A stretch of 17,384 bases of DNA, taken from a virus (Duplodnaviria > Heunggongvirae > Uroviricota > Caudoviricetes). Below are positions 1 to 16,907 of this stretch, in pieces (position 1 is the first letter of the stretch; each line of letters starts with the position of its first letter). The position numbers and the translations under genes were made by a program. The notes beneath the pieces were generated by a model. It ran no database searches and had not been told where the DNA came from. It was given only the letters and a program-made list of their open reading frames with translations. The stretch lies in the IMG/VR virus record IMGVR_UViG_2657244971_000001; one strand, given 5' to 3'.

Positions 1-1284
1 TTACTTCTTCGCCTCTGCAACCACTTTGCTACCCACGCCGCGATTATTGTATTCCCACATGCGGTTGTAGTTAGTGTCATTCAGATTGCGCTGTATTTCG
101 TCGCTATCGTCAACGCTGCCGGTATTACCCGCAAATGGACGATTGGAAATCACCGCATCGCCCCACGGTTTAACCGTGTTAAAACCTTCGTTGATGGCGC
201 TATCACGGATCACCACCTGACCGTTGGTATTGGCATCAACATCCAGCGAGCGGCCCAGTTGTGCCACGCCATCACCGGAAGCATTGAAACGGCTGTTTAC
301 GGCGAGGAAACCGTAATAGATGTTGGACAGCGTAGCCGGTGCAAACACATACGCTTCTTGCTGAGTACGTGAGTTCACCACGCGGAATTCGGTGTTATCG
401 AACACCACTGCGCCGCGACCAGAAACGATATCCACATCCCCTTCAATATAGCTGTTGGTCACCAGCGTACGCGGCTGACGGTTGGTTTCCAGACGGTTCT
501 GCACACCGCTGTTGGTGACAAAGAAGGTGTTCTGACGACCGAGAATGTTAACGTTGTTAATCTGTACCTGGTCACCATCAGTACGCAGTGCCACCGCCGG
601 ATGGTTACCTGCATCTACGCTATCGCCCAGCGTGTTTTCGATGGTCAGATTTTGCAGTTGCAGGCCATTGTTTTGTGACCAGAAGACCGCAGAGCAGAGA
701 ACACCGATACTGTCGCTGCGTTTGCTCTGGCAGCTATCGTACATATACCACGCTGGTTTACCTGGCATATATTTGCCGCGCGGGTTGACGTCGTGACGCC
801 AGTCGGTAGGGCTCATGCCACCATCAAGGGAAAGCCCAATCTTCACATCAATCGGTTTTTCACCTGTACCGTACAGAGTAATTCCACCCGGAGCGGCAGG
901 GACATATACCGTTCCCTGATACTCACCAGGCATCACGGCAATATACTGGCGCTTGTTGGTACGCTTGATAATTGCCGCATCTACCGCCGCCTGAATCGTG
1001 GTATGCGTTACACCTTGAGTGCCCGCCGGGCCGACAACAAATTCAGGTTGCGCAGGCAGGGTAATCGGGGAAGGATTCCACGCTGCAGCACCTGGTGTCA
1101 GGGATGCAAAATAGTGTTGAGCATCGAAATTCTGCGCTTCTTTTGCCGACAGAATCGGGCGAGAAGAGGTACCAGGCGCGGTTTGATCAGAAGGACGTTG
1201 ATCGGGCGGGGTTGAGCTACAGGCGGTCAGCGTCACGCCAAAAGCCAATGCCAGCGCCAGACGGGAAACTGAAAATGTGTTCAC
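1..1284 (-). CDS. ybhC: YbhC, outer-membrane lipoprotein of the pectinesterase-like / acyl-CoA thioesterase family; chromosomal gene flanking attB-lambda on the gal side
   Basis: Complete 427-aa ORF with lipoprotein signal peptide (..LTACSS); the protein matches my recollection of E. coli YbhC almost residue for residue; lies immediately outside the att core. Confidence 0.9.
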   Translation of the reverse strand: MNTFSVSRLALALAFGVTLTACSSTPPDQRPSDQTAPGTSSRPILSAKEAQNFDAQHYFASLTPGAAAWNPSPITLPAQPEFVVGPAGTQGVTHTTIQAAVDAAIIKRTNKRQYIAVMPGEYQGTVYVPAAPGGITLYGTGEKPIDVKIGLSLDGGMSPTDWRHDVNPRGKYMPGKPAWYMYDSCQSKRSDSIGVLCSAVFWSQNNGLQLQNLTIENTLGDSVDAGNHPAVALRTDGDQVQINNVNILGRQNTFFVTNSGVQNRLETNRQPRTLVTNSYIEGDVDIVSGRGAVVFDNTEFRVVNSRTQQEAYVFAPATLSNIYYGFLAVNSRFNASGDGVAQLGRSLDVDANTNGQVVIRDSAINEGFNTVKPWGDAVISNRPFAGNTGSVDDSDEIQRNLNDTNYNRMWEYNNRGVGSKVVAEAKK

Positions 1285-1320: not shown

Positions 1321-1425
1321 GTTGAAGCCTGCTTTTTTATACTAAGTTGGCATTATAAAAAAGCATTGCTTATCAATTTGTTGCAACGAACAGGTCACTA
1401 TCAGTCAAAATAAAATCATTATTTG
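1321..1425. other. attL: lambda-type attachment site attL: bacterial B arm, 15-bp core GCTTTTTTATACTAA (1331-1345), then phage P' arm with IHF H' site (TATCAATTTGTTG, 1371-1383) and three Int arm-type sites (AGGTCACTAT 1392-1401, CAGTCAAAAT 1402-1411, AAAATCATTA 1412-1421)
   Basis: Sequence GAAGCCTGCTTTTTTATACTAAGTTGGCATTATAAAAAAGCATTGCTTATCAATTTGTTGCAACGAACAGGTCACTATCAGTCAAAATAAAATCATTATTTG matches the attB left arm fused to the lambda attP P' arm as I recall them; int ends inside the P' arm as in lambda. Confidence 0.9.
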
Positions 1426-2489
1426 ATTTCAATTTTGTCCCACTCCCTGCCTCTGTCATCACGATACTGTGATGCCATGGTGTCCGACTTATGCCCGAGA
1501 AGATGTTGAGCAAACTTATCGCTTATCTGCTTCTCATAGAGTCTTGCAGACAAACTGCGCAACTCGTGAAAGGTAGGCGGATCCCCTTCGAAGGAAAGAC
1601 CTGATGCTTTTCGTGCGCGCATAAAATACCTTGATACTGTGCCGGATGAAAGCGGTTCACGACGAGTAGATGCAATTATGGTTTCTCCGCCAAGAATCTC
1701 TTTGCATTTATCAAGTGTTTCCTTCATTGATATCCCGAGAGCATCAACATGCAATGTTGTTGGGATGGCAATTTTTACGCCTGTTTTGCTTTGCTCGACA
1801 TAAAGATATCCATCTACGATATCAGACCACTTCATTTCGCATAAATCACCAACTCGTTGCCCGGTAACAACAGCCAGTTCCATTGCAAGTCTGAGCCAAC
1901 ATGGTGATGATTCTGCTGCTTGATAAATTTTCAGGTATTCGTCAGCCGTAAGTCTTGATCTCCTTACCTCTGATTTTGCTGCGCGAGTGGCAGCGACAGG
2001 GTTTGTTGTTATATGGCCTTCAGCTATTGCCTCTCGGAATGCATCGCTCAGTGTTGATCTGATTAACTTGGCTGACGCCGCCTTGCCCTCGTCTATGTAT
2101 CCATTGAGCATTGCCGCAATTTCTTTTGTGGTGATGTCTTCAAGTGGAGCATCAGGCAGACCCCTCCTTATTGCTTTAATTTTGCTCATGTAATTTATGA
2201 GTGTCTTCTGCTTGATTCCTCTGCTGGCCAGGATTTTTTCGTAGCGATCAAGCCATGAATGTAACGTAACGGAATTATCACTGTTGATTCTCGCTGTCAG
2301 AGGCTTGTGTTTGTGTCCTGAAAATAACTCAATGTTGGCCTGTATGGCTTCAGTGATTGCGATTCGCCTGTCTCTGCCTAATCCAAACTCTTTACCCGTC
2401 CTTGGGTCCCTGTAGCAGTAATATCCATTGTTTCTTATATAAAGGTTAGGGGGTAAATCCCGGCGCTCATGACTTCGCCTTCTTCCCAT
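1419..2489 (-). CDS. int: Tyrosine integrase, lambda Int
   Basis: 356-aa ORF; sequence matches lambda Int as recalled, including the C-terminal catalytic region (..HELRSLSARLY..); adjacent to and ending within the att P' arm. Confidence 0.97.
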   Translation of the reverse strand: MGRRRSHERRDLPPNLYIRNNGYYCYRDPRTGKEFGLGRDRRIAITEAIQANIELFSGHKHKPLTARINSDNSVTLHSWLDRYEKILASRGIKQKTLINYMSKIKAIRRGLPDAPLEDITTKEIAAMLNGYIDEGKAASAKLIRSTLSDAFREAIAEGHITTNPVAATRAAKSEVRRSRLTADEYLKIYQAAESSPCWLRLAMELAVVTGQRVGDLCEMKWSDIVDGYLYVEQSKTGVKIAIPTTLHVDALGISMKETLDKCKEILGGETIIASTRREPLSSGTVSRYFMRARKASGLSFEGDPPTFHELRSLSARLYEKQISDKFAQHLLGHKSDTMASQYRDDRGREWDKIEIK

Positions 2490-2685
2490 TTCTGATCCTC
2501 TTCAAAAGGCTACCTGTTACTGGTCGATTTAAGTCAACCTTTACCGCTGATTCGTGGAACAGATATTCTCTTCCATCCTTAACCGGAGGAGGGAATATCC
2601 TGCATTCGCGCACCCATCGACGAACTGTTTCAAGGCTTCTTGGGCGTCGCTGGCGAGCGTTCCACTCCTGAAGTGTCAAGTACAT
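2467..2685 (-). CDS. xis: Excisionase, lambda Xis
   Basis: 72-aa ORF (MYLTLQEWNARQRRPRSLETVRRWVRECRIFPP...) overlapping the int start by 23 nt, as in lambda. Confidence 0.95.
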   Translation of the reverse strand: MYLTLQEWNARQRRPRSLETVRRWVRECRIFPPPVKDGREYLFHESAVKVDLNRPVTGSLLKRIRNGKKAKS

Positions 2686-2712
2686 CGCAAAGTCTCCGCA
2701 ATTACACGCAAG

Positions 2713-2733
2713 AAAAAACCGCCATCAGGCGGC
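2713..2733 (-). terminator. Rho-independent terminator candidate on the minus strand (RNA: GCCGCC-UGAU-GGCGGU followed by UUUUUU), between orf55 and xis
   Basis: Plus-strand AAAAAACCGCCATCAGGCGG; on the minus strand a 5-6 bp GC stem with 4-nt loop and U6 tract; the orf55 stop codon lies in the loop. Confidence 0.55.
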
Positions 2734-2892
2734 TTGGTGTTCTTTCAGTTCTTCAATTCGAATATTGGTTATGTCTGCATGTGCTATCTGCGCCCATATC
2801 ATCCAGTGGTCGTAGCAGTCGTTGATGTTCTCCGCTTCGATAACTCTGTTGAATGGCTCTCCATTCCATTCTCCTGTGACTCGGAAGTGCAT
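2725..2892 (-). CDS. Small lambda early-left ORF of 55 codons between xis and ea8.5 (hypothetical protein)
   Basis: Manually translated minus-strand ORF MHFRVTGEWNGEPFNRVIEAENINDCYDHWMIWAQIAHADITNIRIEELKEHQAA (55 aa); below the length cut-off of the supplied ORF track; position corresponds to the 55-codon ORF annotated in lambda. Confidence 0.5.
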   Translation of the reverse strand: MHFRVTGEWNGEPFNRVIEAENINDCYDHWMIWAQIAHADITNIRIEELKEHQAA

Positions 2893-2980
2893 TTATCATC
2901 TCCATAAAACAAAACCCGCCGTAGCGAGTTCAGATAAAATAAATCCCCGCGAGTGCGAGGATTGTTATGTAATATTGGGT

Positions 2981-3262
2981 TTAATCATCTATATGTTTTG
3001 TACAGAGAGGGCAAGTATCGTTTCCACCGTACTCGTGATAATAATTTTGCACGGTATCAGTCATTTCTCGCACATTGCAGAATGGGGATTTGTCTTCATT
3101 AGACTTATAAACCTTCATGGAATATTTGTATGCCGACTCTATATCTATACCTTCATCTACATAAACACCTTCGTGATGTCTGCATGGAGACAAGACACCG
3201 GATCTGCACAACATTGATAACGCCCAATCTTTTTGCTCAGACTCTAACTCATTGATACTCAT
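2981..3262 (-). CDS. ea8.5: Lambda Ea8.5 protein (function unknown)
   Basis: 93-aa ORF with Cys/His-rich C-terminus; size and position after xis match lambda ea8.5. Confidence 0.85.
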   Translation of the reverse strand: MSINELESEQKDWALSMLCRSGVLSPCRHHEGVYVDEGIDIESAYKYSMKVYKSNEDKSPFCNVREMTDTVQNYYHEYGGNDTCPLCTKHIDD

Positions 3263-3453
3263 TTATAAACTCCTTGCAATGTATGTCGTTTCAGCTAAAC
3301 GGTATCAGCAATGTTTATGTAAAGAAACAGTAAGATAATACTCAACCCGATGTTTGAGTACGGTCATCATCTGACACTACAGACTCTGGCATCGCTGTGA
3401 AGACGACGCGAAATTCAGCATTTTCACAAGCGTTATCTTTTACAAAACCGATC

Positions 3454-4002
3454 TCACTCTCCTTTGATGCGAATGCCAGCGTCAGACATCATATGCAGAT
3501 ACTCACCTGCATCCTGAACCCATTGACCTCCAACCCCGTAATAGCGATGCGTAATGATGTCGATAGTTACTAACGGGTCTTGTTCGATTAACTGCCGCAG
3601 AAACTCTTCCAGGTCACCAGTGCAGTGCTTGATAACAGGAGTCTTCCCAGGATGGCGAACAACAAGAAACTGGTTTCCGTCTTCACGGACTTCGTTGCTT
3701 TCCAGTTTAGCAATACGCTTACTCCCATCCGAGATAACACCTTCGTAATACTCACGCTGCTCGTTGAGTTTTGATTTTGCTGTTTCAAGCTCAACACGCA
3801 GTTTCCCTACTGTTAGCGCAATATCCTCGTTCTCCTGGTCGCGGCGTTTGATGTATTGCTGGTTTCTTTCCCGTTCATCCAGCAGTTCCAGCACAATCGA
3901 TGGTGTTACCAATTCATGGAAAAGGTCTGCGTCAAATCCCCAGTCGTCATGCATTGCCTGCTCTGCCGCTTCACGCAGTGCCTGAGAGTTAATTTCGCTC
4001 AC
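3454..4002 (-). CDS. ea22: Lambda Ea22 protein (coiled-coil protein, function unknown)
   Basis: 182-aa ORF; size, position and sequence as recalled for lambda Ea22. Confidence 0.85.
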   Translation of the reverse strand: MSEINSQALREAAEQAMHDDWGFDADLFHELVTPSIVLELLDERERNQQYIKRRDQENEDIALTVGKLRVELETAKSKLNEQREYYEGVISDGSKRIAKLESNEVREDGNQFLVVRHPGKTPVIKHCTGDLEEFLRQLIEQDPLVTIDIITHRYYGVGGQWVQDAGEYLHMMSDAGIRIKGE

Positions 4003-4220
4003 TTCGAACCTCTCTGTTTACTGATAAGTTCCAGATCCTCCTGGCAACTTGCACAAGTCCGACAACCCTGAACGGCCAAGCGTCTTCGTTCATCTATCGG
4101 ATCGCCACACTCACAACAATGAGTGGCAGATATAGCCTGGTGGTTCAGGCGGCGCATTTTTATTGCTGTGTTGCGCTGTAATTCTTCAATTTCTGATGCT
4201 GAATCAATGATGTCTGCCAT
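3999..4220 (-). CDS. TraR/DksA-type C4 zinc-finger protein (lambda Orf73-like RNA-polymerase-binding factor)
   Basis: 73-aa ORF with CxxC...CxxC motif (CCECGDPIDERRRLAVQGCRTCASC) typical of the TraR/DksA family; start overlaps the ea22 stop by 4 nt. Confidence 0.8.
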   Translation of the reverse strand: MADIIDSASEIEELQRNTAIKMRRLNHQAISATHCCECGDPIDERRRLAVQGCRTCASCQEDLELISKQRGSK

Positions 4221-4273
4221 CTTTCATTAATCCCTGAATTGTTGGTTAATACGCTTGAGGGTGAATGCGAATA

Positions 4274-4297
4274 ATAAAAAAGGAGCCTGTAGCTCCC
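4274..4297 (-). terminator. Rho-independent terminator candidate on the minus strand (RNA: GGGAGC-UACAG-GCUCCU followed by UUUUUU)
   Basis: Plus-strand AAAAAAGGAGCCTGTAGCTCC; hairpin plus U-tract in the direction of early-left transcription, between the orf61-position ORF and orf73. Confidence 0.5.
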
Positions 4298-4318
4298 TGA
4301 TGATTTTGCTTTTCATGT

Positions 4319-4630
4319 TCATCGTTCCTTAAAGACGCCGTTTAACATGCCGATTGCCAGGCTTAAATGAGTCGGTGTGAATCCCATCAGCGTTACCGTT
4401 TCGCGGTGCTTCTTCAGTACGCTACGGCAAATGTCATCGACGTTTTTATCCGGAAACTGCTGTCTGGCTTTTTTGATTTCAGAATTAGCCTGACGGGCAA
4501 TGCTGCGAAGGGCGTTTTCCTGCTGAGGTGTCATTGAACAAGTCCCATGTCGGCAAGCATAAGCACACAGAATATGAAGCCCGCTGCCAGAAAAATGCAT
4601 TCCGTGGTTGTCATACCTGGTCTCTCTCAT
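4319..4630 (-). CDS. Hypothetical protein at the lambda orf61 position, but 103 codons long here
   Basis: ATG at 4628-4630 overlapping the orf63 3' end by 20 nt, as expected for lambda orf61; the reading frame stays open for 103 codons instead of 61. Confidence 0.45.
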   Translation of the reverse strand: MRETRYDNHGMHFSGSGLHILCAYACRHGTCSMTPQQENALRSIARQANSEIKKARQQFPDKNVDDICRSVLKKHRETVTLMGFTPTHLSLAIGMLNGVFKER

Positions 4631-4802
4631 CTGCTTCTGCTTTCGCCACCATCATTTCCAGCTTTTGTGAAAGGGATGCGGCTAACGTATGAAATTCTTC
4701 GTCTGTTTCTACTGGTATTGGCACAAACCTGACTCCAATTTGAGCGAGGCTATGTGCCATCTCGATACTCGTTCTTAACTCAACGGGAGATGCTTTGTGC
4801 AT
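4611..4802 (-). CDS. Lambda Orf63 (hypothetical protein)
   Basis: 63-aa ORF; length and neighbourhood match lambda orf63. Confidence 0.7.
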   Translation of the reverse strand: MHKASPVELRTSIEMAHSLAQIGVRFVPIPVETDEEFHTLAASLSQKLEMMVAKAEADERDQV

Positions 4803-4957
4803 ACAGCTCCCCGTTTATTATTTATCTCCTCAGCCAGCCGCTGTGCTTTCAGGGGATTTCGGATAACAGAAAGGCCGGGAAATACCCAGCCTCGCTTCGT
4901 AACGGAGTAGACGAAAGTGATCGTGCCTACGCGGATATTATCGTGAGGATGTTTCAT
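4775..4957 (-). CDS. Lambda Orf60a (hypothetical protein)
   Basis: 60 codons from the ATG at 4955-4957 (the ORF track extends 2 codons upstream); start overlaps the exo stop by 4 nt. Confidence 0.6.
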
Positions 4958-5634
4958 CGCCATTGCTCCCCAAATACAAAACCAATTTCAGCCAGTGCCT
5001 CGTCCATTTTTTCGATGAACTCCGGCACCATCTCGTCAAAACTCGCTATATACTTTTCATTCCGCTCAATCACGACATAATGCAGGCCTTCACGCTTCAT
5101 ACGCGGGTCATAGTTGGCAAAGTACCAGGCATCTTTTCGCGTCACCCACATGCTGTACTGCACCTGGGCCATGTAAGCCGACTTTATGGCCTCGAAACCA
5201 CCGAGCCGGAATTTCATGAAATCCCGGGAGGTAAACGGGCATTTCAGCTCAAGGCCATTGCCGTCACTGCATAAACCATCGGGAGAGCAGGCGGTGCGCA
5301 TACTTTCGTCGCGATAGATGATCGGGGATTCAATAACATTTACGCCGGAAGTGAACTCAAACAGGGTTCTGGCGTCGTTCTCGTACTGTTTTCCCCAGGC
5401 CAGCGCTTTAGCGTTAACTTCCGGAGCCACACCGGTGCAAACCTCAGCTAGCAGGGTGTGGAAGTAGGACATTTTCATGTCAGGCCACTTCTTTCCTGAT
5501 CGGGGCTTTGCTATCACGTTGTGAACTTCTGAAGCGGTGATGACGCCGAGCCGTAATTTGTGCCATGCATCATCCCCCTGTTCGACAGCTCTCACGTCGA
5601 TCCCGGTACGCTGCAGGATAATGTCCGGTGTCAT
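4954..5634 (-). CDS. exo: Lambda exonuclease (Red-alpha, 5'-3' dsDNA exonuclease)
   Basis: 226-aa [43 protein letters not shown]... matching lambda Exo as recalled. Confidence 0.95.
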
Positions 5635-6011
5635 GCTGCCACCTTCTGCTCAGTGGCTTTCTGTTTCAGGAATCCAAGAGCTTTCACTGCTTCGGCCTGT
5701 GTCAGTTCTGACGATGCGCGAATGTCGCGGCGAAATATCTGGGAACAGAGCGGCAATAAGTCGTCATCCCATGTTTTATCCAGGGCGATCAGCAGAGTGT
5801 TAATCTCCTGCATGGTTTCATCGTTAATGGCTTTTTTGCTGGCCCCGTGGCGTTGCAAATGATCGATGCATAGCGATTCAAACAGGTGCTGGGGCAGGCT
5901 TTTTTCCATGTCGTCTGCCAGTTCTGCCTCTTTCTCTTCACGGGCGAGCTGCTGGTAGTGACGCGCCCAGCTCTGAGCCTCAAGACGATCCTGAATGTAA
6001 TAAGCGTTCAT
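5631..6011 (-). CDS. In-frame chimeric ORF: N-terminal ~62 aa like lambda Gam (short form, [43 protein letters not shown]) fused to C-terminal ~64 aa like lambda Bet ([60 protein letters not shown]); probable deletion derivative of gam-bet
   Basis: 126-aa ORF; good Shine-Dalgarno (AGGAG 9 nt upstream of the ATG at 6009-6011); stop overlaps the exo start exactly as the bet stop does in lambda. An in-frame TAA about 19 codons upstream of the ATG excludes a long-form Gam start. Confidence 0.75.
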
Positions 6012-6326
6012 GGCTGAACTCCTGAAAATGGCTGTGAAAATATCGCCCGCGAAATGCCAGGCTGATTAGGAAAACAGGAAAGGGGGGGTTAGTGATTCAG
6101 GCCGTTACCGCGTCCGTCGAGAAAAACTTCCACGAGCAAATCACTGGTATAAGTGCGCTCGATGCCGCGATGCAGATAAAGCCGTCCGCGTAAATTAGCT
6201 GATGCAGTCCAGGTAACTGTGTTAAGTTCTCGTTAACATTAGGGGTAACATAGGGAGTATAAGATAGTGGAATGCATCATTTTATTGTTGCGAAAATGAT
6301 CGAACCAGCTGGATATCGTGTATCAT

Positions 6327-8300
6327 ATGGAACCGATGATAACTTTCATGGAATGTCTCGGTATATATATGAAAATTAGACCACAGCAGCACCTAATTAA
6401 CATCCTGACTTCAACCAAACAACATCATCCAAATTTTACTCTTTTTCTTGGTGCAGGTGCTAGTATCTCAAGTGGTGTTGATAGTGCTGGTGGGATGATA
6501 AGGCGCTGGAGAGATGCTTACACTCTAATGTATGGAGAAGATGCTCTCAAAAAACAAGTTTGGTACGATAAAGATAATGAGTATTCAGAGCTTTTTGAAG
6601 CATTATATGATCAACCAACTCAAAGAAGAGAATTTATTGAAAGTTGTATTACCGCAGCTAAACCATCTTGGGGATACGTTTATCTCACAAATCTATTGGA
6701 TAAAGGCCATTTTAATACAATTTTTACGACTAACTTCGATGATTTAGTCAATGAAGCTTGCTTTACCTTTTCTAATAATCTGAGACCAATAGTGTGTGCC
6801 CACGATTCAAGTATCAACAGCATACGTTTAACCACAGCTCGGCCAAAAATAATAAAATTACATGGTGATTTTTTATTTGACAATATCAAGAATACTATAA
6901 GGGAGCTTGAGTCACTTGAAGATAACATGAGGGCCAAATTTAGACAGTTTGCAACTGAATTTGGCATGATCGTTATTGGGTACTCGGGACACGACCGTTC
7001 AATTATGGATACTCTCAATACGTTATTGCATTCCGGTAGTTGTTTTCCTCATGGGATTTATTGGTGTATCTGTGACTCAGACACTGAAAAACTTTCTGAG
7101 CAACTTAAAAATCTGGCCCGCTTTCCTCATTTTCATCTTATTAAAATTAATGGATTTGATGAGTTCATGGCTGAATTACATTACGCATTAGGCTGTAATT
7201 TGCAGCAAGAGGTAGTAGAGCCATACTCTGCATTATCTAATAAACTAGATAGATATTTCTCTATAGCTGAAGAAGATGACGCAGATGTCCAGCATGAGAT
7301 TATTAAAAGAGATATGAATAATCTTGCTGATCATGTCAGGAGAGTGAATACAGTAAGCCAGTTTGTAAAAAAAATAAAAGTACTTCTTTCAGAGAAAGAC
7401 TCATCGTTAGATGATAATTCGATCACTAAATCTTTAGAAATAATGTTAAAGGAAACTAAATTTGCTGGTTCTCCTGAGGGGATTCATTTTTATAATACCC
7501 CCAATTATTTGATTGCAAACTCTGCATTTCGTGCTGGAGAGTATAATGAATGTGTAGAATATGCTACTAAACATCTGGCTAATGGGAAATCTCTCGAAAC
7601 AGAAGTATTAATACTTCGTTCCTATATTCATTTGGATAATGATTCTGAAATACAAAAGTCAATAGAAAGAATAACAAGTTATAACAAAATGAATGATGGT
7701 GAAGTTGGCAAGCTTGTAAATGGATTAGTGGACTTAATGGATGCTAAAAAATTCAAAATTGCGAATAGCCTTATGGACATACTTGAATCCCGAACAATAC
7801 CGTCTAAACATAAGCAGTTATTGCTTATAAATAGAGTTCTTTGCAACAAATTACAAAAGCAGCCGCTTTCAGCAAAACAGCAACAAGAGCTTGAGGAAGT
7901 GCTGAATGAAGTGATAGATAAAAACGAAGCTTGGCTTGCTCTGGGGGCTGCTATACTTTTAGAAAAATGGGACATTGCTGAAGAAGTGCTATCAGCATTA
8001 GATGAAACTGAGATAGTTACAATATTGACGCAATCAATGCCGATTTTTGACTTGATTTCTACAGAGTTTTATGAAAAGGTCAAGTTAGTAGCTATAGAGC
8101 GTGGTTATAACGTTTCATTCGAAGAAGAAACGGAGTTACCAGAGGTTGTTCCTGCTGAGGATGAGACTCAAAGTCTCAGTCCTGATGTGAGAGAAATACC
8201 TACAGATAAAAAGAAAGCCATAACTCACAAATCAGCAGACAATGATGAGGCATTTGATGGATTACGCACTGGCGAAGAAAGTATAAGCAAACCAGCTTAA
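6327..8300 (+). CDS. SIR2-family (SIR2_2-like, defence-associated sirtuin type) protein with an uncharacterised alpha-helical C-terminal half; candidate NAD+-hydrolysing anti-phage effector. Start ambiguous: GTG 6318 or ATG 6327/6336/6348/6369
   Basis: 660-codon open frame. Motifs seen: FLGAGAS (nt 6444-6464, Gly-rich dinucleotide-binding loop), TTNFDDLVNEA (Asn codon at 6732-6734), KLHGDF (His codon at 6861-6863), IGYSGHD. Asn/His spacing (43 residues) is comparable to the catalytic N/H pair of ThsA and DSR-type sirtuins. AT-rich codon usage by eye, unlike the flanking lambda genes. Confidence 0.8.
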   Translation: MEPMITFMECLGIYMKIRPQQHLINILTSTKQHHPNFTLFLGAGASISSGVDSAGGMIRRWRDAYTLMYGEDALKKQVWYDKDNEYSELFEALYDQPTQRREFIESCITAAKPSWGYVYLTNLLDKGHFNTIFTTNFDDLVNEACFTFSNNLRPIVCAHDSSINSIRLTTARPKIIKLHGDFLFDNIKNTIRELESLEDNMRAKFRQFATEFGMIVIGYSGHDRSIMDTLNTLLHSGSCFPHGIYWCICDSDTEKLSEQLKNLARFPHFHLIKINGFDEFMAELHYALGCNLQQEVVEPYSALSNKLDRYFSIAEEDDADVQHEIIKRDMNNLADHVRRVNTVSQFVKKIKVLLSEKDSSLDDNSITKSLEIMLKETKFAGSPEGIHFYNTPNYLIANSAFRAGEYNECVEYATKHLANGKSLETEVLILRSYIHLDNDSEIQKSIERITSYNKMNDGEVGKLVNGLVDLMDAKKFKIANSLMDILESRTIPSKHKQLLLINRVLCNKLQKQPLSAKQQQELEEVLNEVIDKNEAWLALGAAILLEKWDIAEEVLSALDETEIVTILTQSMPIFDLISTEFYEKVKLVAIERGYNVSFEEETELPEVVPAEDETQSLSPDVREIPTDKKKAITHKSADNDEAFDGLRTGEESISKPA

Positions 8301-8336
8301 TAATTGAACAGTGATTAACTGAGAGTGAAGGGGCTT

Positions 8337-8420
8337 ATGAAGCAGAAAAATATCAACAACCAAAGCAGAATTTCTGAAGAAAGTAAGAAAAAAATCAAGG
8401 AAATGCTTAAAAAACAATAA
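8337..8420 (+). CDS. Lysine-rich 27-codon micro-ORF (MKQKNINNQSRISEESKKKIKEMLKKQ) immediately downstream of the SIR2-family gene; speculative
   Basis: ATG at 8337 preceded by GAAGGGG Shine-Dalgarno-like sequence about 5 nt upstream; ends 3 nt before the terminator hairpin; too short for the ORF track. Confidence 0.3.
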   Translation: MKQKNINNQSRISEESKKKIKEMLKKQ

Positions 8421-8423
8421 ATT

Positions 8424-8447
8424 AAAAGACCCCGCAAGGGGTCTTTT
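8424..8447. terminator. Strong rho-independent terminator (AAAAGACCCC-GCAA-GGGGTCTTTT), potentially bidirectional
   Basis: Perfect 10-bp stem with 4-nt loop, flanked by an A-run on one side and a T-run on the other. Confidence 0.75.
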
Positions 8448-9031
8448 AATAACTATTGGCCAGTTTTTAATGAAATCATGCTTAATACAATGTGATTTTT
8501 TTCACTTGTCGTAGTGCCGATCTGATTGCCATCGTCACAGGTACTCAGTAGCGAAAAAATACGTCTACTGGGTACCAATTATCCTCAATGAGAAGTGCAG
8601 CGCGCTCCAATAAAAAGGTGATTCACCGACAGCGAACTTTGTACACTCGCTTGGTTATGGCGAGCAGGTGATGCTAACCGCCTGCCAGAATGTCACTCCA
8701 CTTCCTCAAGTATCTGAGCGACGTGAAGCCGGTGGCTTGACTTACATCGAGCAAAAATATTTCCTGGCTCACAATAGGGTGCGAGCAATCGATTCAGAAC
8801 GGTATTAGAGCTGCTAATGATCCTTCATATTGCGCCTAAATCCACAAAATTGATTTTCAATAATCAACCCGCCATAATCATCTCATCGGAGCCTGAACAA
8901 CTCCGGTGACTTCTGCGCTAAACGGGGACGTTTATGCGCACACACAATCCAAACTCACTTCTCCCGTCACAGATGCAGAAATGCACCTGCAATTCTTTGC
9001 ATCTAACGTTTGACCTCTGCGGAGGTGAAGC

Positions 9032-9487
9032 GTGAACCTCTCACAAGACGGCATCAAATTACATCGCGGCAACTTCACCGCTATCGGCCAGCAGATCCAG
9101 CCTTATCTGGAGGAAGGCAAATGCTTTCGCATGGTGCTTAAACCGTGGCGAGAGAGACGCAGTCTTTCCCAGAATGCACTCAGCCACATGTGGTACAGCG
9201 AAATCAGTGAATACCTCATCAGCAGGGGGAAATCGTTCGCTACCGCAGCATGGGTAAAAGATGCTCTCAAACACACATACCTCGGTTATGAAACCAAGGA
9301 CCTGGTTGATGTCGTAACCGGCGAAATCACTACTATCCAGTCGTTACGCCATACCTCCGATCTTGATACCGGAGAGATGTATGTCTTCCTGTGTAAGGTT
9401 GAAGCCTGGGCGATGAATATTGGCTGTCACCTGACTATTCCGCAGAGCTGCGAGTTCCAGCTGCTCCGCGACAAGCAGGAGGCGTAA
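9032..9487 (+). CDS. ninB: NinB-family recombination protein (DLP12 YbcN-like)
   Basis: 151-aa ORF starting at GTG with GGAGGTG Shine-Dalgarno; contains an [13 protein letters not shown] segment reminiscent of the lambda NinB RSLDQNRKLW motif; first gene of a nin-type block. Confidence 0.75.
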
Positions 9488-9657
9488 TGGCTACACCGCT
9501 TATTCGTGTCATGAACGGACACATCTACAGAGTATCAAATCGTCGTAAGCGTAAGCCTGAGCTGAAGCCATCCGAAATACCAACACTGCTCGGATATACC
9601 GCTAGCCTGGTTGATAAAAAATGGTTGCGACTGGCAGCAAGGAGGAATCATGGCTGA
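9487..9657 (+). CDS. ninE: NinE-family small protein
   Basis: Manually translated 56-aa [59 protein letters not shown]; its ATG overlaps the ninB-like stop (TAATG). Confidence 0.7.
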   Translation: MATPLIRVMNGHIYRVSNRRKRKPELKPSEIPTLLGYTASLVDKKWLRLAARRNHG

Positions 9658-9940
9658 TTTGAGAAAAGCAGCGCGTGGTCGGGAATGCCAGGTAAGAATC
9701 CCTGGCGTATGTAATGGCAATTCTGAGACGTCTGTACTGGCACATATCCGGCTGGCTGGATTGTGCGGTACCGGTATCAAACCGCCAGACCTGATTGCCA
9801 CCATTGCATGTTCTGCCTGCCACGACGAAATCGACCGCCGCACACATTTTGTCGATGCTGCATATGCAAAAGAATGCGCGCTGGAAGGTATGGCGAGAAC
9901 ACAGGTTATCTGGCTGAAAGAGGGGGTTATTAAGGCGTGA
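9650..9940 (+). CDS. ybcO: YbcO-like protein (DUF1364, putative Zn-binding nuclease of lambdoid nin regions)
   Basis: 96 codons from ATG 9650 (GGAGG 5 nt upstream); cysteine-rich ([12 protein letters not shown]...CSACHDEID); the ORF track extends upstream from a TTG. Confidence 0.75.
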
Positions 9941-10299
9941 ATACCTACAGCATCACATTACCCTGGCCTCCGAGCAATAATCGCTATTACCGCCATAATC
10001 GCGGACGCACGCACATCAGCGCAGAGGGGCAGGCATACCGCGATAACGTCGCCCGAATCATTAAAAACGCAATGCTAGATATCGGCCTGGCTATGCCTGT
10101 GAAAATCCGCATTGAGTGCCACATGCCGGATCGCCGTCGCCGTGACCTGGATAATCTGCAAAAAGCCGCTTTTGACGCACTCACTAAAGCAGGTTTCTGG
10201 CTGGATGATGCTCAGGTCGTTGATTACCGCGTTGTGAAGATGCCTGTTACCAAAGGTGGGAGGCTGGAACTGACCATCACCGAAATGGGGAATGAATGA
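9937..10299 (+). CDS. rusA: RusA Holliday-junction resolvase
   Basis: 120-aa [41 protein letters not shown]... matching DLP12 RusA as recalled; start overlaps the ybcO stop. Confidence 0.9.
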
Positions 10300-10436
10300 T
10301 GTTTGAGTTTAATATGGCAGAACTTCTTCGCCACCGCTGGGGGCGTCTGCGCTTATATCGTTTCCCCGGTTCTGTTTTGACCGATTACCGAATACTGAAG
10401 AATTACGCCAAAACACTGACAGGAGCAGGAGTATGA
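10296..10436 (+). CDS. ylcG: YlcG-like small protein (46 aa)
   Basis: Manually translated [46 protein letters not shown]; start overlaps the rusA stop (ATGA). Confidence 0.55.
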
Positions 10437-10521
10437 AGTCAGAGATAACAATCAACTAATACTGTTTTGTTGATTTTTGCTTGTAATTGGCGTTCTGGTC
10501 TGAGTTTTGTGGAGTAAGTTG

Positions 10522-10899
10522 ATGCGTGATATTCAGATGGTTCTTGAGCGTTGGGGAGCGTGGGCGGCTAATAATCATGAAGATGTGACCTGGTCGTCCA
10601 TTGCCGCCGGTTTTAAGGGATTAATTCCTTCAAAAGTAAAATCTCGCCCACAATGTTGTGACGATGACGCGATGATCATTTGCGGGTGCATGGCCCGTCT
10701 GAAAAAGAACAACAGCGATTTGCATGATTTATTGGTGGACTATTATGTCGGCGGCATGACTTTTATGGCGCTTGCACGTAAGCATGGGCGATCTGATTGT
10801 TGGGTTGGCAGGATGCTTCAGAAAGCTGAGGGCGTAGTGGAGGGTATGCTGATGGTGTTGGATCTCCGATTGGAGATGGATGCTGATTGTTCGAAATAA
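10522..10899 (+). CDS. quuD: Late-gene antiterminator Q (phage 82 / DLP12 QuuD type)
   Basis: ATG at 10522 with GGAG 7 nt upstream; protein [33 protein letters not shown]...[16 protein letters not shown] matches the QuuD type as recalled; followed by a promoter-like element and terminator. Confidence 0.85.
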
Positions 10900-10911
10900 T
10901 TAAAGGAAAAG

Positions 10912-10940
10912 TTGCTGTCTGATTGTCATTAGTCTAACAT
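10912..10940 (+). promoter_or_regulatory. Candidate late promoter pR' (-35 TTGCTG, 17-bp spacer, -10 TAACAT) downstream of Q
   Basis: Hexamers read directly from the sequence; the position immediately after Q and before a terminator mirrors the lambdoid pR'-qut-tR' arrangement. Not verifiable without experiment. Confidence 0.35.
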
Positions 10941-11000
10941 TTTAAATGTTGGAATCGCAACGTAGTTATTATCATATAACAGCTTGTTTCCTGATTTAGC

Positions 11001-11027
11001 CAGCCTCCCCAAAGGCTGGTTTTTTTC
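11001..11027 (+). terminator. Rho-independent terminator (CCAGCC-TCCCCAAA-GGCTGG followed by T7), likely tR'-type terminator of the short late leader RNA
   Basis: 6-bp GC-rich stem followed by TTTTTTT on the plus strand. Confidence 0.6.
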
Positions 11028-11054
11028 TAATAAGTATTATTTCGGGTAGGGATT

Positions 11055-11579
11055 TTATTGTTTAACCCATAATAATTCATTGACATTGAATCCCAACTTT
11101 TGAGCGGTTCGCACATAGTCTGCTTTTACTTTATCTGGAATAGTTGGGGTCCTTGCCAGAATCCATAGGTATTCTCTGTTCGGACCACTGACAAGAGCAT
11201 ACTTATACTCATCATCCAGTTTGATTACATTATAGCCACCATAGAAGGGGCCAAAAAACGAAACCTTCAATGCTGCAGTTTTAGTATCTCCAGTAAAGTA
11301 TGCTTTACCTTCGCTCTCGCTCCATTTATTTTTCGTTGGATCGTATCCACGGTTAAGTACACGAATCCCTCCGTCGTTCCGTTTTCCATAAGTAGCGCTG
11401 ACCTGTTCCAGACCACGTTCGAACCGGTTCTCGAGGCGAGCTATTTCATACCATTTTCCGAGGTAGCGGTTGGCGTCAAAATTTGTAATCGGCTGCACAC
11501 CTTTAGGTGGTGTCGGGGCCTTACATGCTATAAGAGTGAAAGAGAGTGCAATGCCAGTCAACACAGGCCATAACTTCAT
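11055..11579 (-). CDS. Blc-like bacterial lipocalin, outer-membrane lipoprotein (moron cargo)
   Basis: 174-aa ORF with lipoprotein signal and lipobox (..FTLIAC); strong similarity to E. coli Blc as recalled (NFDANRYLGKWYEIARLENRFERGLE...KVSFFGPFYGGYNVI...YLWILARTP); AGGA Shine-Dalgarno about 8 nt upstream. Confidence 0.85.
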   Translation of the reverse strand: MKLWPVLTGIALSFTLIACKAPTPPKGVQPITNFDANRYLGKWYEIARLENRFERGLEQVSATYGKRNDGGIRVLNRGYDPTKNKWSESEGKAYFTGDTKTAALKVSFFGPFYGGYNVIKLDDEYKYALVSGPNREYLWILARTPTIPDKVKADYVRTAQKLGFNVNELLWVKQ

Positions 11580-11611
11580 AATAAATCCTGTACTTTTGAT
11601 AGTTGAGAGTA

Positions 11612-11661
11612 AGTATGAAAGATAGATGATTACGACCGATCACTTAAAGAACTTTCATACT
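11612..11661. repeat. Perfect 10-bp inverted repeat AGTATGAAAG ... CTTTCATACT separated by 30 nt, in the divergent intergenic region between the lipocalin gene and the DUF523/DUF1722 gene
   Basis: Arms at 11612-11621 and 11652-11661 are exact reverse complements. Confidence 0.6.
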
Positions 11662-11771
11662 ATATTAGGAATAGTCCATAACAGAAAAATTGTCAGTGAT
11701 GACGCCAGAAAGGCAATTTATTCCGTGCACTACACAGTTTATGTGTTAATGAATTAGTCAAGGGGGAGAAT

Positions 11772-12731
11772 ATGATAAAAAAACCTGTGATTGGAATCAG
11801 CGGTTGTTTGGCCGGTTCTGCTGTTCGTTTTGATGGTGGTCACAAAAGAGCTGACTTTTTAATGGACAAATTAGTGGAATGGGTAACATTCAGACCAGTA
11901 TGTCCGGAAATGGCTATAGGGCTGCCAGTTCCGCGTCCTGCTCTACGTCTTGTGCGCTCGACGCAAGGAAATATACGGATGTGTTTCAGCCACGACCAGA
12001 ATGAGGATGTGACAGAGAGAATGACAGAGTTTAGTCGTTCTTATATGGACAAATTAAAGGATGTATCGGGGTTTGTGGTTTGTGCTAAATCTCCCAGCTG
12101 TGGCATGGAGCGCGTGCGTGTCTATGATGAAAATGGTAATCGAGGTCGTAAAGATGGAGTGGGACTATTTACGAGCACTTTGATGGAAAAGTTTTCCTGG
12201 CTACCGGTTGAAGAGGATGGGCGATTACATGATCCAGTGCTTCGTGAGAATTTTGTTGAAAGAGTTTTTGCTTTGCATGAGCTCAATCACCTTTACAAGG
12301 AGAAATTATCAAGAAGAGAGTTATTAGCTTTTCATAGTCGTTATAAGCTTCAGTTGTTGGCGCATAGTCAGGCAGGCTATAAAGATATGGGACCATTTGT
12401 GGCTGCAATACACGAGTGGGCGGACCTTGAATCATACTTTGAGGTGTATCGTGATAAGCTGATGGCGATTCTCAGAAAACCTGCATCACGTAAAAATCAC
12501 ACGAATGTGCTGATGCATATACAGGGGTATTTTAGTAACTACTTAAGTACACGCCAGCGTAAAGAGTTGAGCGAGGTTATACTTAACTATCGTTCTGGCA
12601 CATTACCTCTTCTTGCGCCGTTGACTCTGCTGAAGCATTATCTGGGTGAGTATCCTAATGATTACTTGCTTACACAGAATTACTTCGATCCCTATCCGGA
12701 CGAACTGGCTCTAAGACTGATGGTAAATTAA
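11772..12731 (+). CDS. DUF523 (TudS-like 4Fe-4S thiouracil-desulfidase fold) / DUF1722 (YbgA-like) fusion protein
   Basis: 319-aa ORF with AGGGGGAG Shine-Dalgarno; N-terminus GISGCLAG..C..C-type cysteines typical of the DUF523 family, C-terminal half resembling YbgA-type DUF1722. Confidence 0.75.
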   Translation: MIKKPVIGISGCLAGSAVRFDGGHKRADFLMDKLVEWVTFRPVCPEMAIGLPVPRPALRLVRSTQGNIRMCFSHDQNEDVTERMTEFSRSYMDKLKDVSGFVVCAKSPSCGMERVRVYDENGNRGRKDGVGLFTSTLMEKFSWLPVEEDGRLHDPVLRENFVERVFALHELNHLYKEKLSRRELLAFHSRYKLQLLAHSQAGYKDMGPFVAAIHEWADLESYFEVYRDKLMAILRKPASRKNHTNVLMHIQGYFSNYLSTRQRKELSEVILNYRSGTLPLLAPLTLLKHYLGEYPNDYLLTQNYFDPYPDELALRLMVN

Positions 12732-13082
12732 TTGTATGCGATATCATCCAAAAGGATGAGTTCCTGCATGCAGGATATTTACAATCGTAAAAACTACACT
12801 ATGATACCCAGAGTGTCAGTTTGTATAAAAACTCTGTTTACGCTGAAGAAACAATTGAGATGCAACTTAAAGTTGGTAAACATGCCAGTCAAAATATATA
12901 ATATTATGATTCCACGCAGCTATATATAATATAACGGATTGGTTTAATAATTTGTCTTTGTGAGTTAAATACATAATTTTATACTTGTGATGCAATGAAA
13001 TTTTCCTTATTGTTGAACTGGCGAATATTGATTTTCCACCTATACTTACCTGGTGTAACCCCAATGATATCAGGTGGATAAT

Positions 13083-13814
13083 ATGCCATACATATGTTCT
13101 ATCATTTTGGTGTTGAACTCGTTTGATGTCCGAATTGGTAAAGAAGATATTTTGTTTAAAAAAGGAAGTGCTGTTCTCATTGATTACAATTTAAAAGATT
13201 TTTTTTCATCAAATATAGATCATGTAATGATCGTAGATGTTGAAGAGAAAACAGTTAATGATTTCTTTAAAAGCAACACACTCTCACCTTTTTCTGTAAG
13301 AAGGTTTTATCCGGCATACTTGATGGTGGAATGTGAAGATTTTTCATTGTTAAAGAACTTGATTGCATGCTTGAATTGTGATGGCAGAACTGTGGATTTT
13401 GTTAGAAATCAAATATCACTTGCATGTCTTGCTATCTTATCTTCAGAGAAAATAGTGCAAAGTTTTTTATTTGGATGTCTTAATAGTTTAGGAAGTAAAG
13501 TTAAGGCTATTATTCACACGGATATATCTGCGGCATGGAGACTTTGTGATATATCTTCAAGACTGTATCTGAGTGAAAGTCTGTTAAAAAGAAAATTAAA
13601 GCACGAAGGCTTATCATTTAGTAAGTTAATTCTTGAAGAGCGAATGGTGATGGCGGAAAGGTTATTAAGCTACAATTTATATTCTGTTGGAAAAGTTGCT
13701 GAGATATGCGGTTATGAAAACACGTCATATTTTGTAAGTGTTTTCAGAAGGTATTTTTGTGTTCCTCCCCATCAATATTCATCAAGATTTTTTTTAGAAA
13801 AAGACATGATGTAA
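13083..13814 (+). CDS. AraC/XylS-family transcriptional regulator (AppY/GadX/Rns-like small activator) in a strongly AT-rich islet
   Basis: C-terminal double helix-turn-helix signature (..LYLSESLLKRKLKHEGLSFSKLILEERMVMAERLL...VGKVAEICGYENTSYFVSVFRRYF); ATG 13083 preceded by AGGTGG; the ORF track starts at an upstream GTG (13074). Confidence 0.8.
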   Translation: MPYICSIILVLNSFDVRIGKEDILFKKGSAVLIDYNLKDFFSSNIDHVMIVDVEEKTVNDFFKSNTLSPFSVRRFYPAYLMVECEDFSLLKNLIACLNCDGRTVDFVRNQISLACLAILSSEKIVQSFLFGCLNSLGSKVKAIIHTDISAAWRLCDISSRLYLSESLLKRKLKHEGLSFSKLILEERMVMAERLLSYNLYSVGKVAEICGYENTSYFVSVFRRYFCVPPHQYSSRFFLEKDMM

Positions 13815-14001
13815 CGTGATGCGTTTTAATGATTTTGTAATTTTCGTATTTGATAATTGTATGATGCTTTCAGCTACGCCAGAATAATCGCGGCGTTTTT
13901 CTTTTTGAATAGATGTTCAAGCCTTACGCTAATGTAACTTCTATACCTTTCCTCTTCGTTCCGAACCGTGTACACCATCCGTTATTTGCGGAGGTGAGGC
14001 T

Positions 14002-14217
14002 ATGAAATCCATGGATAAGTTAACAACGGGCATTGCCTACGGCACCTCCGCAGGCAGTGCTGGCTACTGGTTTTTACAGCTGCTCGATAAAGTCACGCCC
14101 TCACAGTGGGCAGCAATAGGTGTGCTGGGTAGCTTGGTATTTGGCCTGCTGACGTACCTGACAAACCTTTATTTCAAGATTAAAGAAGATAAGCGCAAGG
14201 CTGCGAGAGGTGAATAA
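14002..14217 (+). CDS. essD: Class II holin / pinholin (phage 21 S21 / DLP12 EssD type) with dual-start motif MKSM
   Basis: 71-aa [63 protein letters not shown]... matching S21/EssD as recalled; two predicted TM helices. Confidence 0.9.
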
Positions 14218-14714
14218 TGCCTCCATCATTACGAAAAGCCGTTGCTGCTGCTATTGGTGGCGGAGCAATTGCTATAGCATCAGTGTTAATCACTGGCCCA
14301 AGTGGTAACGATGGTCTGGAAGGTGTCAGCTACATACCATACAAAGATATCGTTGGCGTATGGACTGTATGTCACGGGCATACAGGAAAAGACATCATTC
14401 CCGGTAAAACGTATACCGAAGCAGAATGCAAAGCCCTCCTGAATAAAGACCTTGCCACGGTAGCCAGACAAATTAACCCGTACATCAAAGTCGATATACC
14501 GGAAACAACGCGCGGCGCTCTTTACTCGTTCGTCTATAACGTGGGCGCAGGCAATTTCAGAACATCTACTCTTCTTCGCAAAATAAACCAGGGCGATATC
14601 AAGGGCGCATGTGACCAGCTACGTCGCTGGGCATACGCTGGCGGTAAGCAATGGAAAGGCCTGATGACTCGTCGTGAGATTGAGCGTGAGGTCTGTTTGT
14701 GGGGGCAACAATGA
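14217..14714 (+). CDS. rrrD: SAR endolysin (signal-anchor-release lysozyme, R21 / RrrD type)
   Basis: 165-aa ORF with Gly/Ala-rich N-terminal SAR helix ([20 protein letters not shown]) followed by a lysozyme domain; start overlaps the holin stop by 1 nt. Confidence 0.9.
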
Positions 14715-15175: not shown

Positions 15176-15312
15176 AATCTTAACTACAATATGATTCATT
15201 TTGATGATTGTTTCATAAGGAACAGTGAAGTAAGATCTAAGAGGAGTTAAATTTTATACAGTATAATCATAATATTGCAGCAAGGTGGTTATAATTGAAA
15301 GAATATTTAGAT

Positions 15313-16770: not shown

Positions 16771-16907
16771 TATATGGCTGATTTATAATTGTGAGTTTAA
16801 TATTATGTTGACTCACTCATTGATCCAATACCTAACTTTACCAGCAACCCCTCCGTCCCCAGTAGCACTGGCTGCTGGGGTGCGTTTTATTCATAAAGCA
16901 AGGCTGT

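Follow-up and report, generated by a model that had tools for sequence, protein, structure and literature searches.

A lambdoid prophage remnant beside ybhC of Escherichia coli with a probable history of two early-region deletions and a retained SIR2 cassette

Organization of the prophage region

The stretch of DNA described here, hereafter the window (17,384 nt; IMG/VR record IMGVR_UViG_2657244971_000001), corresponds to bases 20551-37934 of the 37,935-nt draft contig LLYN01000053.1 (assembly GCA_001484405.1) and harbours the chromosomal gene ybhC followed by a lambdoid prophage of E. coli. Between exo and the nin genes no cro, N, cII, O, P, ori or repressor was found, and this interval contains a gene for a SIR2-domain protein. 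As judged from alignments with related prophages, the element is very probably a mosaic lambdoid prophage at att-lambda, the early region of which was gutted by two illegitimate deletions, with a SIR2 cassette retained at the ren slot.

The region was mapped by blastn comparison with phage lambda (L002), E. coli ZH193 (L001), MSI001 (L003) and K-12 DLP12 (L010). Phage DNA begins at the attL core (Table 1), right after ybhC, with int and xis next to the chromosomal flank, and related prophages occupy the same site, between ybhC and ybhB/bioA, in many E. coli genomes. A 4.5-kb block (1331-5827; attP core, int, xis, ea8.5, ea22, orf61/63/60a, exo and the final 197 nt of bet) is 98.7% identical to lambda 27724-32221. 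Positions 5825-6095 correspond to lambda gam, and 5825-6215 to gam plus the 68-amino-acid (aa) kil-type allele of ZH193 and MSI001 (L001 3240-3628). The following block, 6215-10881, shares 98.2% identity with ZH193, starting 6 nt beyond the ZH193 P gene, while 8850-17328 shares 98.6% identity with MSI001 and covers ylcH through Q, blc, ybgA, the gene of an AraC-type regulator, essD, rrrD, Rz/Rz1, trkG and ynaK'. Nucleotide identity to K-12 DLP12 reaches 95.1% in the nin/Q block (8850-10881) and 92.8% in the lysis block. The gene order of the window is colinear with lambda, ZH193 and MSI001 in successive blocks. A scan of the whole window against Rfam gave no match at the gathering thresholds.

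The right edge of the window is the end of the contig (one base short) and not a biological boundary. The final 56 nt (17329-17384) depart from MSI001, whose ynaK is a truncated pseudogene; a ParB/Srx-like frame continues there. The contig breaks off here, probably at a repeat common to other prophages, and the late region of the prophage was therefore left unassembled.

Deletions in the early region

The open reading frame (ORF) at 5631-6011, which a first-pass annotation made from the sequence letters had taken for a truncated gam, proved to be an in-frame gam'-'bet fusion, with gam codon 62 joined to bet codon 198. Truncation of gam was thus correctly recognised, but it is due to a separate deletion of 707 bp (deletion 1; approximately lambda 32222-32928), the junction of which (5825-5827) shows a 3-nt microhomology, TAA. 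The Pfam Gam match is confined to residues 1-64 of the fusion, tblastn detected both Gam (E = 2e-44) and Bet residues 197-261 (E = 6e-37), and the exact fusion protein is recorded on a single contig. Judged by the reading frames, bet is destroyed and gam truncated, exo being the only survivor of the red system, which makes the earlier description of the defence gene as the only cargo "between red and nin" inexact.

The second and larger deletion (deletion 2) joins ZH193-type coordinates 3628 and 9002 with a 1-nt microhomology at 6215/6216. Relative to ZH193, 5,373 bp (L001 3629-9001) are absent, comprising the 5' end of kil, two early-left genes, an XRE/S24-type repressor gene, a cro-like gene, YdaT, an O-type initiator gene and P; on the right, the junction lies 5-6 nt beyond the P stop codon. 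The remnant on the left side belongs to a kil-type gene, i.e. one of the cell-division-inhibitor type, and matches residues 28-67 of ZH193 Kil at 97.5% (tblastn, E = 4e-23). Both junctions are readable directly in the sequence. A search for a recombination signal at the second junction returned the 1-nt microhomology only. A nearby TGTGTT repeat was considered as the cause of the deletion and rejected, as it is out of register with the junction.

The missing functions were sought by tblastn with 33 early-region proteins: the lambda set (Kil, CIII, Ea10, Ral, SieB, N, RexA/B, CI, Cro, CII, O, P and Ren), the alternative repressor, cro-like, YdaT, initiator and P alleles of ZH193, MSI001 and EC7, and, as positive controls, Bet and Gam. 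The window yielded matches to Bet 197-261, Gam and Kil 28-67 alone, all other alignments having E > 0.05; the 31 early-control, immunity and replication proteins have no homologue there at E < 0.05 except for the kil remnant. Pfam searches with every gene called in the source contig likewise gave no repressor, Cro, O or P family. These results bear out the first-pass statement that no repressor, Cro, N, O or P-like ORF is present. The companion statement, that the entire segment from kil to ren is absent, is right for the immunity and replication genes, but 41 kil codons remain and ren was not part of the loss (see below). Similarly, homology to lambda itself does stop at 6095, close to the ~6100 originally given, but lambdoid homology extends to the breakpoint at 6215/6216. 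Alignment to lambda, proposed at that time for mapping the breakpoints, and to ZH193 places the boundaries at 5825-5827 and 6215/6216. The nin-type sequence starts not at 9032, as had been proposed, but upstream, with DLP12-type nin homology from 8850. As for the early genes possibly lying elsewhere in the prophage or genome, it is only synteny that speaks against it: in the relatives, trkG/ynaK are followed by the terminase genes.

Both junctions were read from a short-read draft contig of 37.9 kb which ends inside the prophage, and neither is present in any complete genome examined, as might be expected if they were false joins made by the assembler. However, since the joins overlap by 1-3 nt only, with no repeat that an assembler could collapse, and since window positions 5798-12300 (6,503 nt), which cover both junctions, recur with 100% identity in a contig from ERR9882167, an independent run assembled separately, such an artefact is very unlikely and indeed scarcely credible. 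The open in-frame fusion yielded by deletion 1 also speaks against it.

Position and origin of the SIR2 cassette

To the right of deletion 2 lies an AT-rich cassette with the SIR2 gene, a micro-ORF, a hairpin terminator and an antirepressor pseudogene remnant (Table 1). The first three of these had been recognised before. The ~570 bp of non-coding DNA reported behind them (8451-9031, 581 bp), on the contrary, contains the antirepressor remnant, which resembles Rha/antirepressor genes at 72-83% and corresponds in RefSeq relatives to a frameshifted P22AR C-terminal-domain pseudogene, as well as a ylcH-like ORF.

The same cassette was detected at ≥99.5% identity in 26 of 5,426 complete E. coli genomes, the window junction in none. 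The copies inspected are 99.5-99.9% identical, share the same right flank and, wherever the early region survives, directly follow the P stop; those adjacent to P come from one draft and five complete genomes, one metagenome contig and three IMG/VR contigs. In all inspected copies except two deletion derivatives, the 60 nt to the left of the cassette are the end of P. This left flank is identical in nine other loci (L001, L006-L008, L011-L013, L023, L025), and the prophage of EC7 (L009) is annotated alike; one of these P-SIR2 loci came from a metagenome scan. The carriers are lambdoid prophages at differing sites and in differing states of decay. Comparison of ZH193 with lambda and MSI001 revealed that P homology stops exactly at the P stop, to be followed by ren in lambda and by the SIR2 cassette in ZH193; by this alignment, the cassette occupies the ren position in the intact relatives, and ren is not among the lost genes. 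All that is missing from the copy in the window is the first 5-6 nt beyond the P stop. An IMG/VR prophage integrated at the same ybhC site (L013) carries the same cassette with the early segment in place, having 5,372-5,373 bp where the window has its junction.

Whether the SIR2 gene was gained or retained at a replaced locus had been left undecided in the first-pass annotation. If gained, an incoming cassette would have substituted for the segment from kil to P in one event, with 6215/6216 as the acquisition scar. The junction does fall where the boundary of an insertion would lie, no more than 5-6 nt from the left end that the ZH193-lambda comparison gives for the cassette, and the composition of the cassette (32-38% GC) is foreign. 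However, in all other contexts examined the cassette is found after P, with an identical right flank of more than 4.6 kb, the window lacks the first 5-6 nt present in the other copies, and L013 has, at the same chromosomal site, both the P-SIR2 arrangement and the missing 5.37 kb. Given these three observations, a single deletion accounts for everything, and replacement is regarded as quite improbable. Since the window lacks no more of the cassette than these 5-6 nt, it appears that SIR2 was retained and that the deletion stopped at the edge of the cassette; the "gained" half of the earlier alternative finds no place, as the same cassette follows P in all inspected copies that bear an early region.

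Other early-region deletions

A comparable deletion was found at the DLP12/argU site in a contig of GCA_051333965.1 (L024), where orf60a is joined directly to the same SIR2 cassette (L024 3878-3880), 31 nt to the right of the window junction. The right endpoints of the two deletions, 37 nt (L024) and 6 nt (window) after the P stop, flank an inverted repeat (TGTTAA-N7-TTAACA, 6221-6239), and in either case 121 nt or more remain upstream of the SIR2 ATG; the proximity of the endpoints may be due to chance, to a fragile site or to selection to keep SIR2 expressed. In E. coli 2017.15.02CC, at the same ybhC site (L005 8725-9917), the segment from ea8.5 to nin is lost and the scar, between xis and ylcH, is occupied by the insertion sequence IS1B; this is an independent, insertion sequence-associated route to an immunity-less remnant. 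In two Citrobacter assemblies (L016/L017) the chromosomal ars operon adjoins a prophage remnant with DinI, a SIR2 of 74% identity and the genes from RusA to the lysis cassette, while EH01-18-02 carries an O'-'P fusion.

It is conceivable that such endpoints are not random, being set either by selection for an expressed SIR2 cassette or by a deletion hotspot at the P-SIR2 boundary, in which case the remnant would represent a domesticated defence locus and not neutral debris. The deletions of the window and L024 are independent, with different left ends (kil and orf60a) and integration sites, and yet their right ends lie 6 and 37 nt beyond the P stop codon; the Citrobacter remnant keeps its 74%-identical SIR2 with everything to the left of it lost, and all three have an intact SIR2 and micro-ORF. 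On the other hand, there are two cases only, both found by a SIR2 search and hence subject to ascertainment bias, other remnants end elsewhere (inside P in DLP12, in the O'-'P fusion of EH01-18-02, at IS1 in 2017.15.02CC), and no feature typical of site-specific recombination was identified. A non-random endpoint is therefore considered possible but doubtful.

Several points also weigh against the favoured account, in which two deletions left a prophage remnant with its ancestral SIR2 gene. If endpoints were purely random, it would be an unlikely coincidence for a deletion to stop within 6 nt of a module boundary. The presumed identities of the lost immunity and replication alleles are drawn from relatives with at least three different immunity modules. 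Since the window stops at the contig end, attR and all late genes fall outside it, as would any rearranged copy of the early genes further to the right. The promoter scan of 5900-9200 returned 8 matches against 8.7 expected from shuffles, and none of them is assignable to SIR2, the leftward genes or the nin block. As regards the SIR2 gene, none of the named PADLOC systems matches its product over the full length or beyond the SIR2 domain, a partial match to the candidate PDC-S65 being the only one, and neither a name nor an experimental report for this SIR2 family was found in PADLOC, NCBIfam or the literature searched.

The SIR2 protein and the micro-ORF

The SIR2 protein matches Pfam SIR2_2 (E = 3.9e-13; 50.2 bits against a cut-off of 24.5) and contains TTNFDD and KLHGD motifs which, including Asn122 and His165, presumably the catalytic residues, are invariant across 60 homologues. 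In PADLOC, PDB-sequence and fold comparisons the protein matches best the pAgo-associated SIR2 (SIR2-APAZ of SPARSA), DSR2, ThsA and KomC, with 8jl0, DSR2, ThsA and KomC as the top Foldseek matches; the SIR2 of SPARSA, DSR2, ThsA and KomC are NAD+-consuming anti-phage effectors. The AlphaFold model (mean predicted local distance difference test score 74.7) has the SIR2 domain at 1-300 and an all-alpha repeat domain at 379-578, with a helical linker between the two and a disordered acidic tail; searches with the C-terminal domain gave no sequence match. No pAgo, ThsB, HerA or SLOG partner is encoded among the window genes. Homologues are widespread in Enterobacterales, Vibrionaceae and Aeromonas, where they are annotated just as "SIR2 family protein". 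Judged by its domain and motifs, the gene is likely a defence gene, and its product is most likely an abortive-infection effector that consumes NAD+ in the manner of DSR2, ThsA or SPARSA and was kept from the ancestral phage.

A lysine-rich basic ORF of 26-30 aa follows or overlaps the SIR2 stop in five lineages (Table 1), the SIR2 proteins of which are only 45-74% identical. It is preceded by a Shine-Dalgarno-like sequence in four of the five, the upstream sequence of the Citrobacter one being not resolved. A scan of genome contigs with the SIR2 protein yielded one locus, in Vibrio barjaei. The surroundings of the homologues differ: in the P2/186-like Vibrio phage 10N.286.45.B12_PE001 (L014) the gene is located between the CI repressor and the integrase, in a Citrobacter lambdoid prophage (L016-L018) in the nin region, and in Rac-like prophages of Klebsiella (L019-L021) immediately downstream of an HTH_3 repressor. 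Perhaps, and this is offered tentatively, SIR2 and the basic ORF form an undescribed two-gene anti-phage cassette, which moves among temperate phages that are not related and takes up different cargo slots in them (following P, within the nin region, next to the repressor of Rac-like prophages, between cI and int of P2/186-like prophages) and the benefit of which, or a local fragile site, would explain why independent disarming deletions stop within ~40 nt of its left edge. The locus would then be a small natural case of prophage domestication driven by defence.

Retained genes

All retained genes are open and encode proteins with 83-100% identity to their lambda or DLP12 counterparts, in agreement with the earlier statement that the integration/excision genes, Q and a complete lysis cassette have been kept. 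The features are listed in Table 1, where the nin/Q block (8850-10899) was assigned by nucleotide identity to DLP12, protein identities, Pfam and PHROG.

Bacterial-type cargo is found between Q and the lysis genes (10900-13990), namely the lipocalin gene blc (on the minus strand), a ybgA/DUF1722 gene and a gene for a YdeO/GadX-like AraC regulator, while trkG is situated after Rz (15295-16770 region), as in the Rac prophage. The arrangement of the post-Q cargo and trkG is common to the relatives; strain 2018-18.25PC has its AraC-type gene interrupted by an ISApl1-mcr-1 transposon. The AraC-type product (13074-13814) is the sole helix-turn-helix protein among the window genes and was considered as a hidden repressor. 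This was rejected, as it is a cargo gene of a YdeO/GadX-like activator family, and the same gene occurs in MSI001, where the early region is intact, and also in 2017.15.02CC.

Table 1. Coordinates of the prophage features and of the SIR2-associated micro-ORFs (positions refer to the window unless a locus is named).
Feature	Position	Strand	Description
ybhC	1-1284	-	Chromosomal flank; from annotation in relatives
attL core	1331-1345	+	GCTTTTTTATACTAA; exact core match, 0.01 expected by chance
int	1419-2489	-	356 aa, intact; 353/356 identical to lambda Int, no internal stops
xis	2467-2685	-	72 aa, intact; 71/72 identical to lambda Xis, no internal stops
exo	4954-5634	-	226 aa, intact; 221/226 identical to lambda Exo; Pfam YqaJ
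gam'-'bet fusion ORF	5631-6011	-	126 aa, in frame; GamS residues 1-62 and Bet residues 198-261
kil-type 3' remnant	6089-6215	-	Codons 28-68 and stop of the 68-aa allele; start codon and first 27 codons deleted
Deletion 2 junction	6215/6216	.	ZH193-type coordinates 3628/9002 joined; 1-nt microhomology
SIR2 cassette	6216-8849	+	AT-rich, 2.6 kb; 32-38% GC against ~50% in flanks
SIR2 upstream DNA	6216-6368	+	153 nt before the coding sequence
SIR2 coding sequence	6369-8300	+	643 aa, RefSeq start; alternative starts 6318 and 6327; Pfam SIR2_2
Micro-ORF, E. coli window	8337-8420	+	27 aa; from conservation; peptide MKQKNINNQSRISEESKKKIKEMLKKQ
Micro-ORF, Citrobacter	L016/L018 ~7033-7116		Peptide MKQKSQHASSKISEESKKKLKELLKKQ
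Micro-ORF, Klebsiella	L019/L021 6990-7079		Peptide MKDKNAATNVKKLDLEEKKKLIEQIESKK
Micro-ORF, Vibrio P2/186-like phage	L014 5123-5215		Peptide MNPIKQTTSKPRSAKQTSQLLKELKAQLKK
Micro-ORF, V. barjaei	L015 7922-8002		Peptide MKEKKVVNRKKLTQEQKARLKRLAKL
Hairpin terminator	8421-8450	+	Strong; dG -22.6 kcal/mol, z -5.35; from folding
rha/P22AR-type antirepressor pseudogene remnant	8516-8790	+	Degenerate; RefSeq pseudogene call and Rha similarity
ylcH-like ORF	8934-9035	+	33 aa; 31/33 identical to K-12 YlcH; overlaps ybcN start
ybcN	9032-9487	+	DLP12-type nin block
ninE	9487-9657	+	DLP12-type nin block
ybcO	9650-9940	+	DLP12-type nin block
rusA	9937-10299	+	DLP12-type nin block
ylcG	10296-10436	+	DLP12-type nin block
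Q	10522-10899	+	Intact; DLP12-type block
essD	14002-14217	+	Intact lysis cassette
rrrD	14217-14714	+	Intact lysis cassette
Rz	14711-15175	+	Intact lysis cassette
Rz1	14931-15116	+	Intact lysis cassette

Predicted consequences of the deletions

In the proposed course of decay, deletion 1 (707 bp) would have fused gam to bet, and deletion 2 (5,373 bp) would have run from inside kil to 5-6 nt past the P stop, halting at the left edge of the SIR2 cassette. Judging from the relatives, the latter would have removed both early promoters, leftward and rightward, with the operators, together with the genes for the repressor and the O-type initiator, the cro-like gene, YdaT at the cII position and P. 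The ori of lambda is situated inside O. The regulatory consequences are deduced from established lambda biology: repression, replication and antiterminated early transcription would be impossible without the early promoters, an N-type antiterminator, a cII-type activator and the initiator/origin. Under these circumstances int and xis would be deprived of both their usual transcription routes, gam'-'bet and exo of their normal promoters, and Q and the lysis genes would be cut off from the rightward early promoter and insulated behind the SIR2 terminator, while self-contained cargo (the SIR2 cassette, blc, ybgA, the AraC-type regulator gene and trkG) might still be expressed. At least one function of lytic growth (immunity/early control, replication) is lost, as in defective lambdoid prophages. 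The term "grounded", i.e. incapable of excision, would describe the presumed state of the element, whose attL, int and xis are intact; decay and loss of excision functions of grounded/cryptic prophages have been reviewed (PMC6379469).

The intact int, xis, attL, Q and lysis genes could also suggest a helper-dependent, streamlined and satellite-like island, whose replication and packaging would depend on superinfection by a lambdoid phage. However, the O-type gene, and with it the place which ori has in lambda, is gone, leaving the O/P proteins of a helper without a target, both scars are irregular (an in-frame fusion and a mid-gene truncation), as accidents would leave them, and the closest relatives are ordinary complete prophages. 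This alternative is thus highly improbable, and decay of a once complete prophage by two deletions is preferred.

Comparison with known systems

The SIR2 protein resembles DSR2, ThsA and the SPARSA effector in its N-terminal SIR2 domain with the invariant motifs, and the gene is prophage-borne. The SIR2 domain followed by an all-alpha repeat region is reminiscent of DSR2, in plan though not in sequence; the protein has 643 aa, in contrast to the ~1000-aa architecture of DSR2, and its helical C-terminal domain is unrelated. Unlike SPARSA, Thoeris and SIR2-HerA, the locus has no pAgo, no SLOG and ThsB, and no HerA, but instead the conserved basic ORF of 26-30 aa.

Taken alone, the finding of one more defective prophage matters little, since textbooks already describe cryptic lambdoid prophages (DLP12, Rac, Qin) in which immunity and replication are gone while nin, Q, lysis and cargo genes persist. 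What the present analysis adds is an account of decay exact to the base pair, with both junctions mapped against relatives which still carry the lost DNA, and the view that the predicted defence gene is an ancestral cargo of the ren slot and not a replacement. The SIR2 cassette offers a modest possibility of novelty; if both the clustering of endpoints and a working SIR2/micro-ORF defence were true, the locus would be a handy case of defence genes outliving their phages.

The early-region-keeping prophages with SIR2 (those of ZH193, Res13-Lact-ER02-39 and EC7, and IMG/VR UViG_3300029312_000025 at ybhC) have the same cassette and nin block, but differ from the window in keeping kil, the early-left genes, the repressor, the cro-like gene, YdaT, the O-type gene, P, and full-length gam and bet. 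With lambda, the window shares the attachment site, the attL core and a colinear, 98.7%-identical segment from int to exo. The lambda segment from kil through P, on the contrary, has no counterpart in the window, SIR2 stands in place of ren, and the nin, Q and lysis genes belong to the DLP12 type, Rz (90.5%) being the only one that matches lambda. The element is therefore not a lambda prophage at the species level: matches to lambda DNA are confined to 1331-6095 and part of Rz, and the rest is of the DLP12 or MSI001 type.

The closest parallel in layout is DLP12 of K-12, a defective lambdoid prophage in which most of the functions for lytic reactivation have been lost while its lysis module is intact and transcribed (PMC7918800). 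Both elements have, in this order, int, xis, an exo remnant, a scar at the place of bet to O, cargo, ylcH-ybcN-ninE-ybcO-rusA-ylcG-Q, further cargo and essD-rrrD-rzpD/rzoD; in DLP12 the layout reads intD, xisD', exoD'/'peaD (the P remnant), renD', cargo, ylcH to quuD, cargo and essD-rrrD-rzpD. The question raised by the first-pass annotation, whether this gene order is a described lambdoid variant, can thus be answered in part affirmatively, as the order is that of DLP12. The window is nevertheless not DLP12 itself, as only its exo, nin/Q and lysis genes match that prophage. DLP12 lies at argU with intD, whereas the window element lies at att-lambda with an Int 99% identical to that of lambda; the scar is exoD'/'peaD, inside P, in the former, but kil'/post-P in the latter, which has also lost P and bears the additional gam'-'bet deletion. 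The cargo at the ren position is renD-emrE-ybcKLM in DLP12 and the SIR2 cassette in the window, and the post-Q cargo nmpC and blc-ybgA-AraC-type regulator, respectively. The window element is a cryptic prophage of the DLP12 kind and a separate product of the same process.

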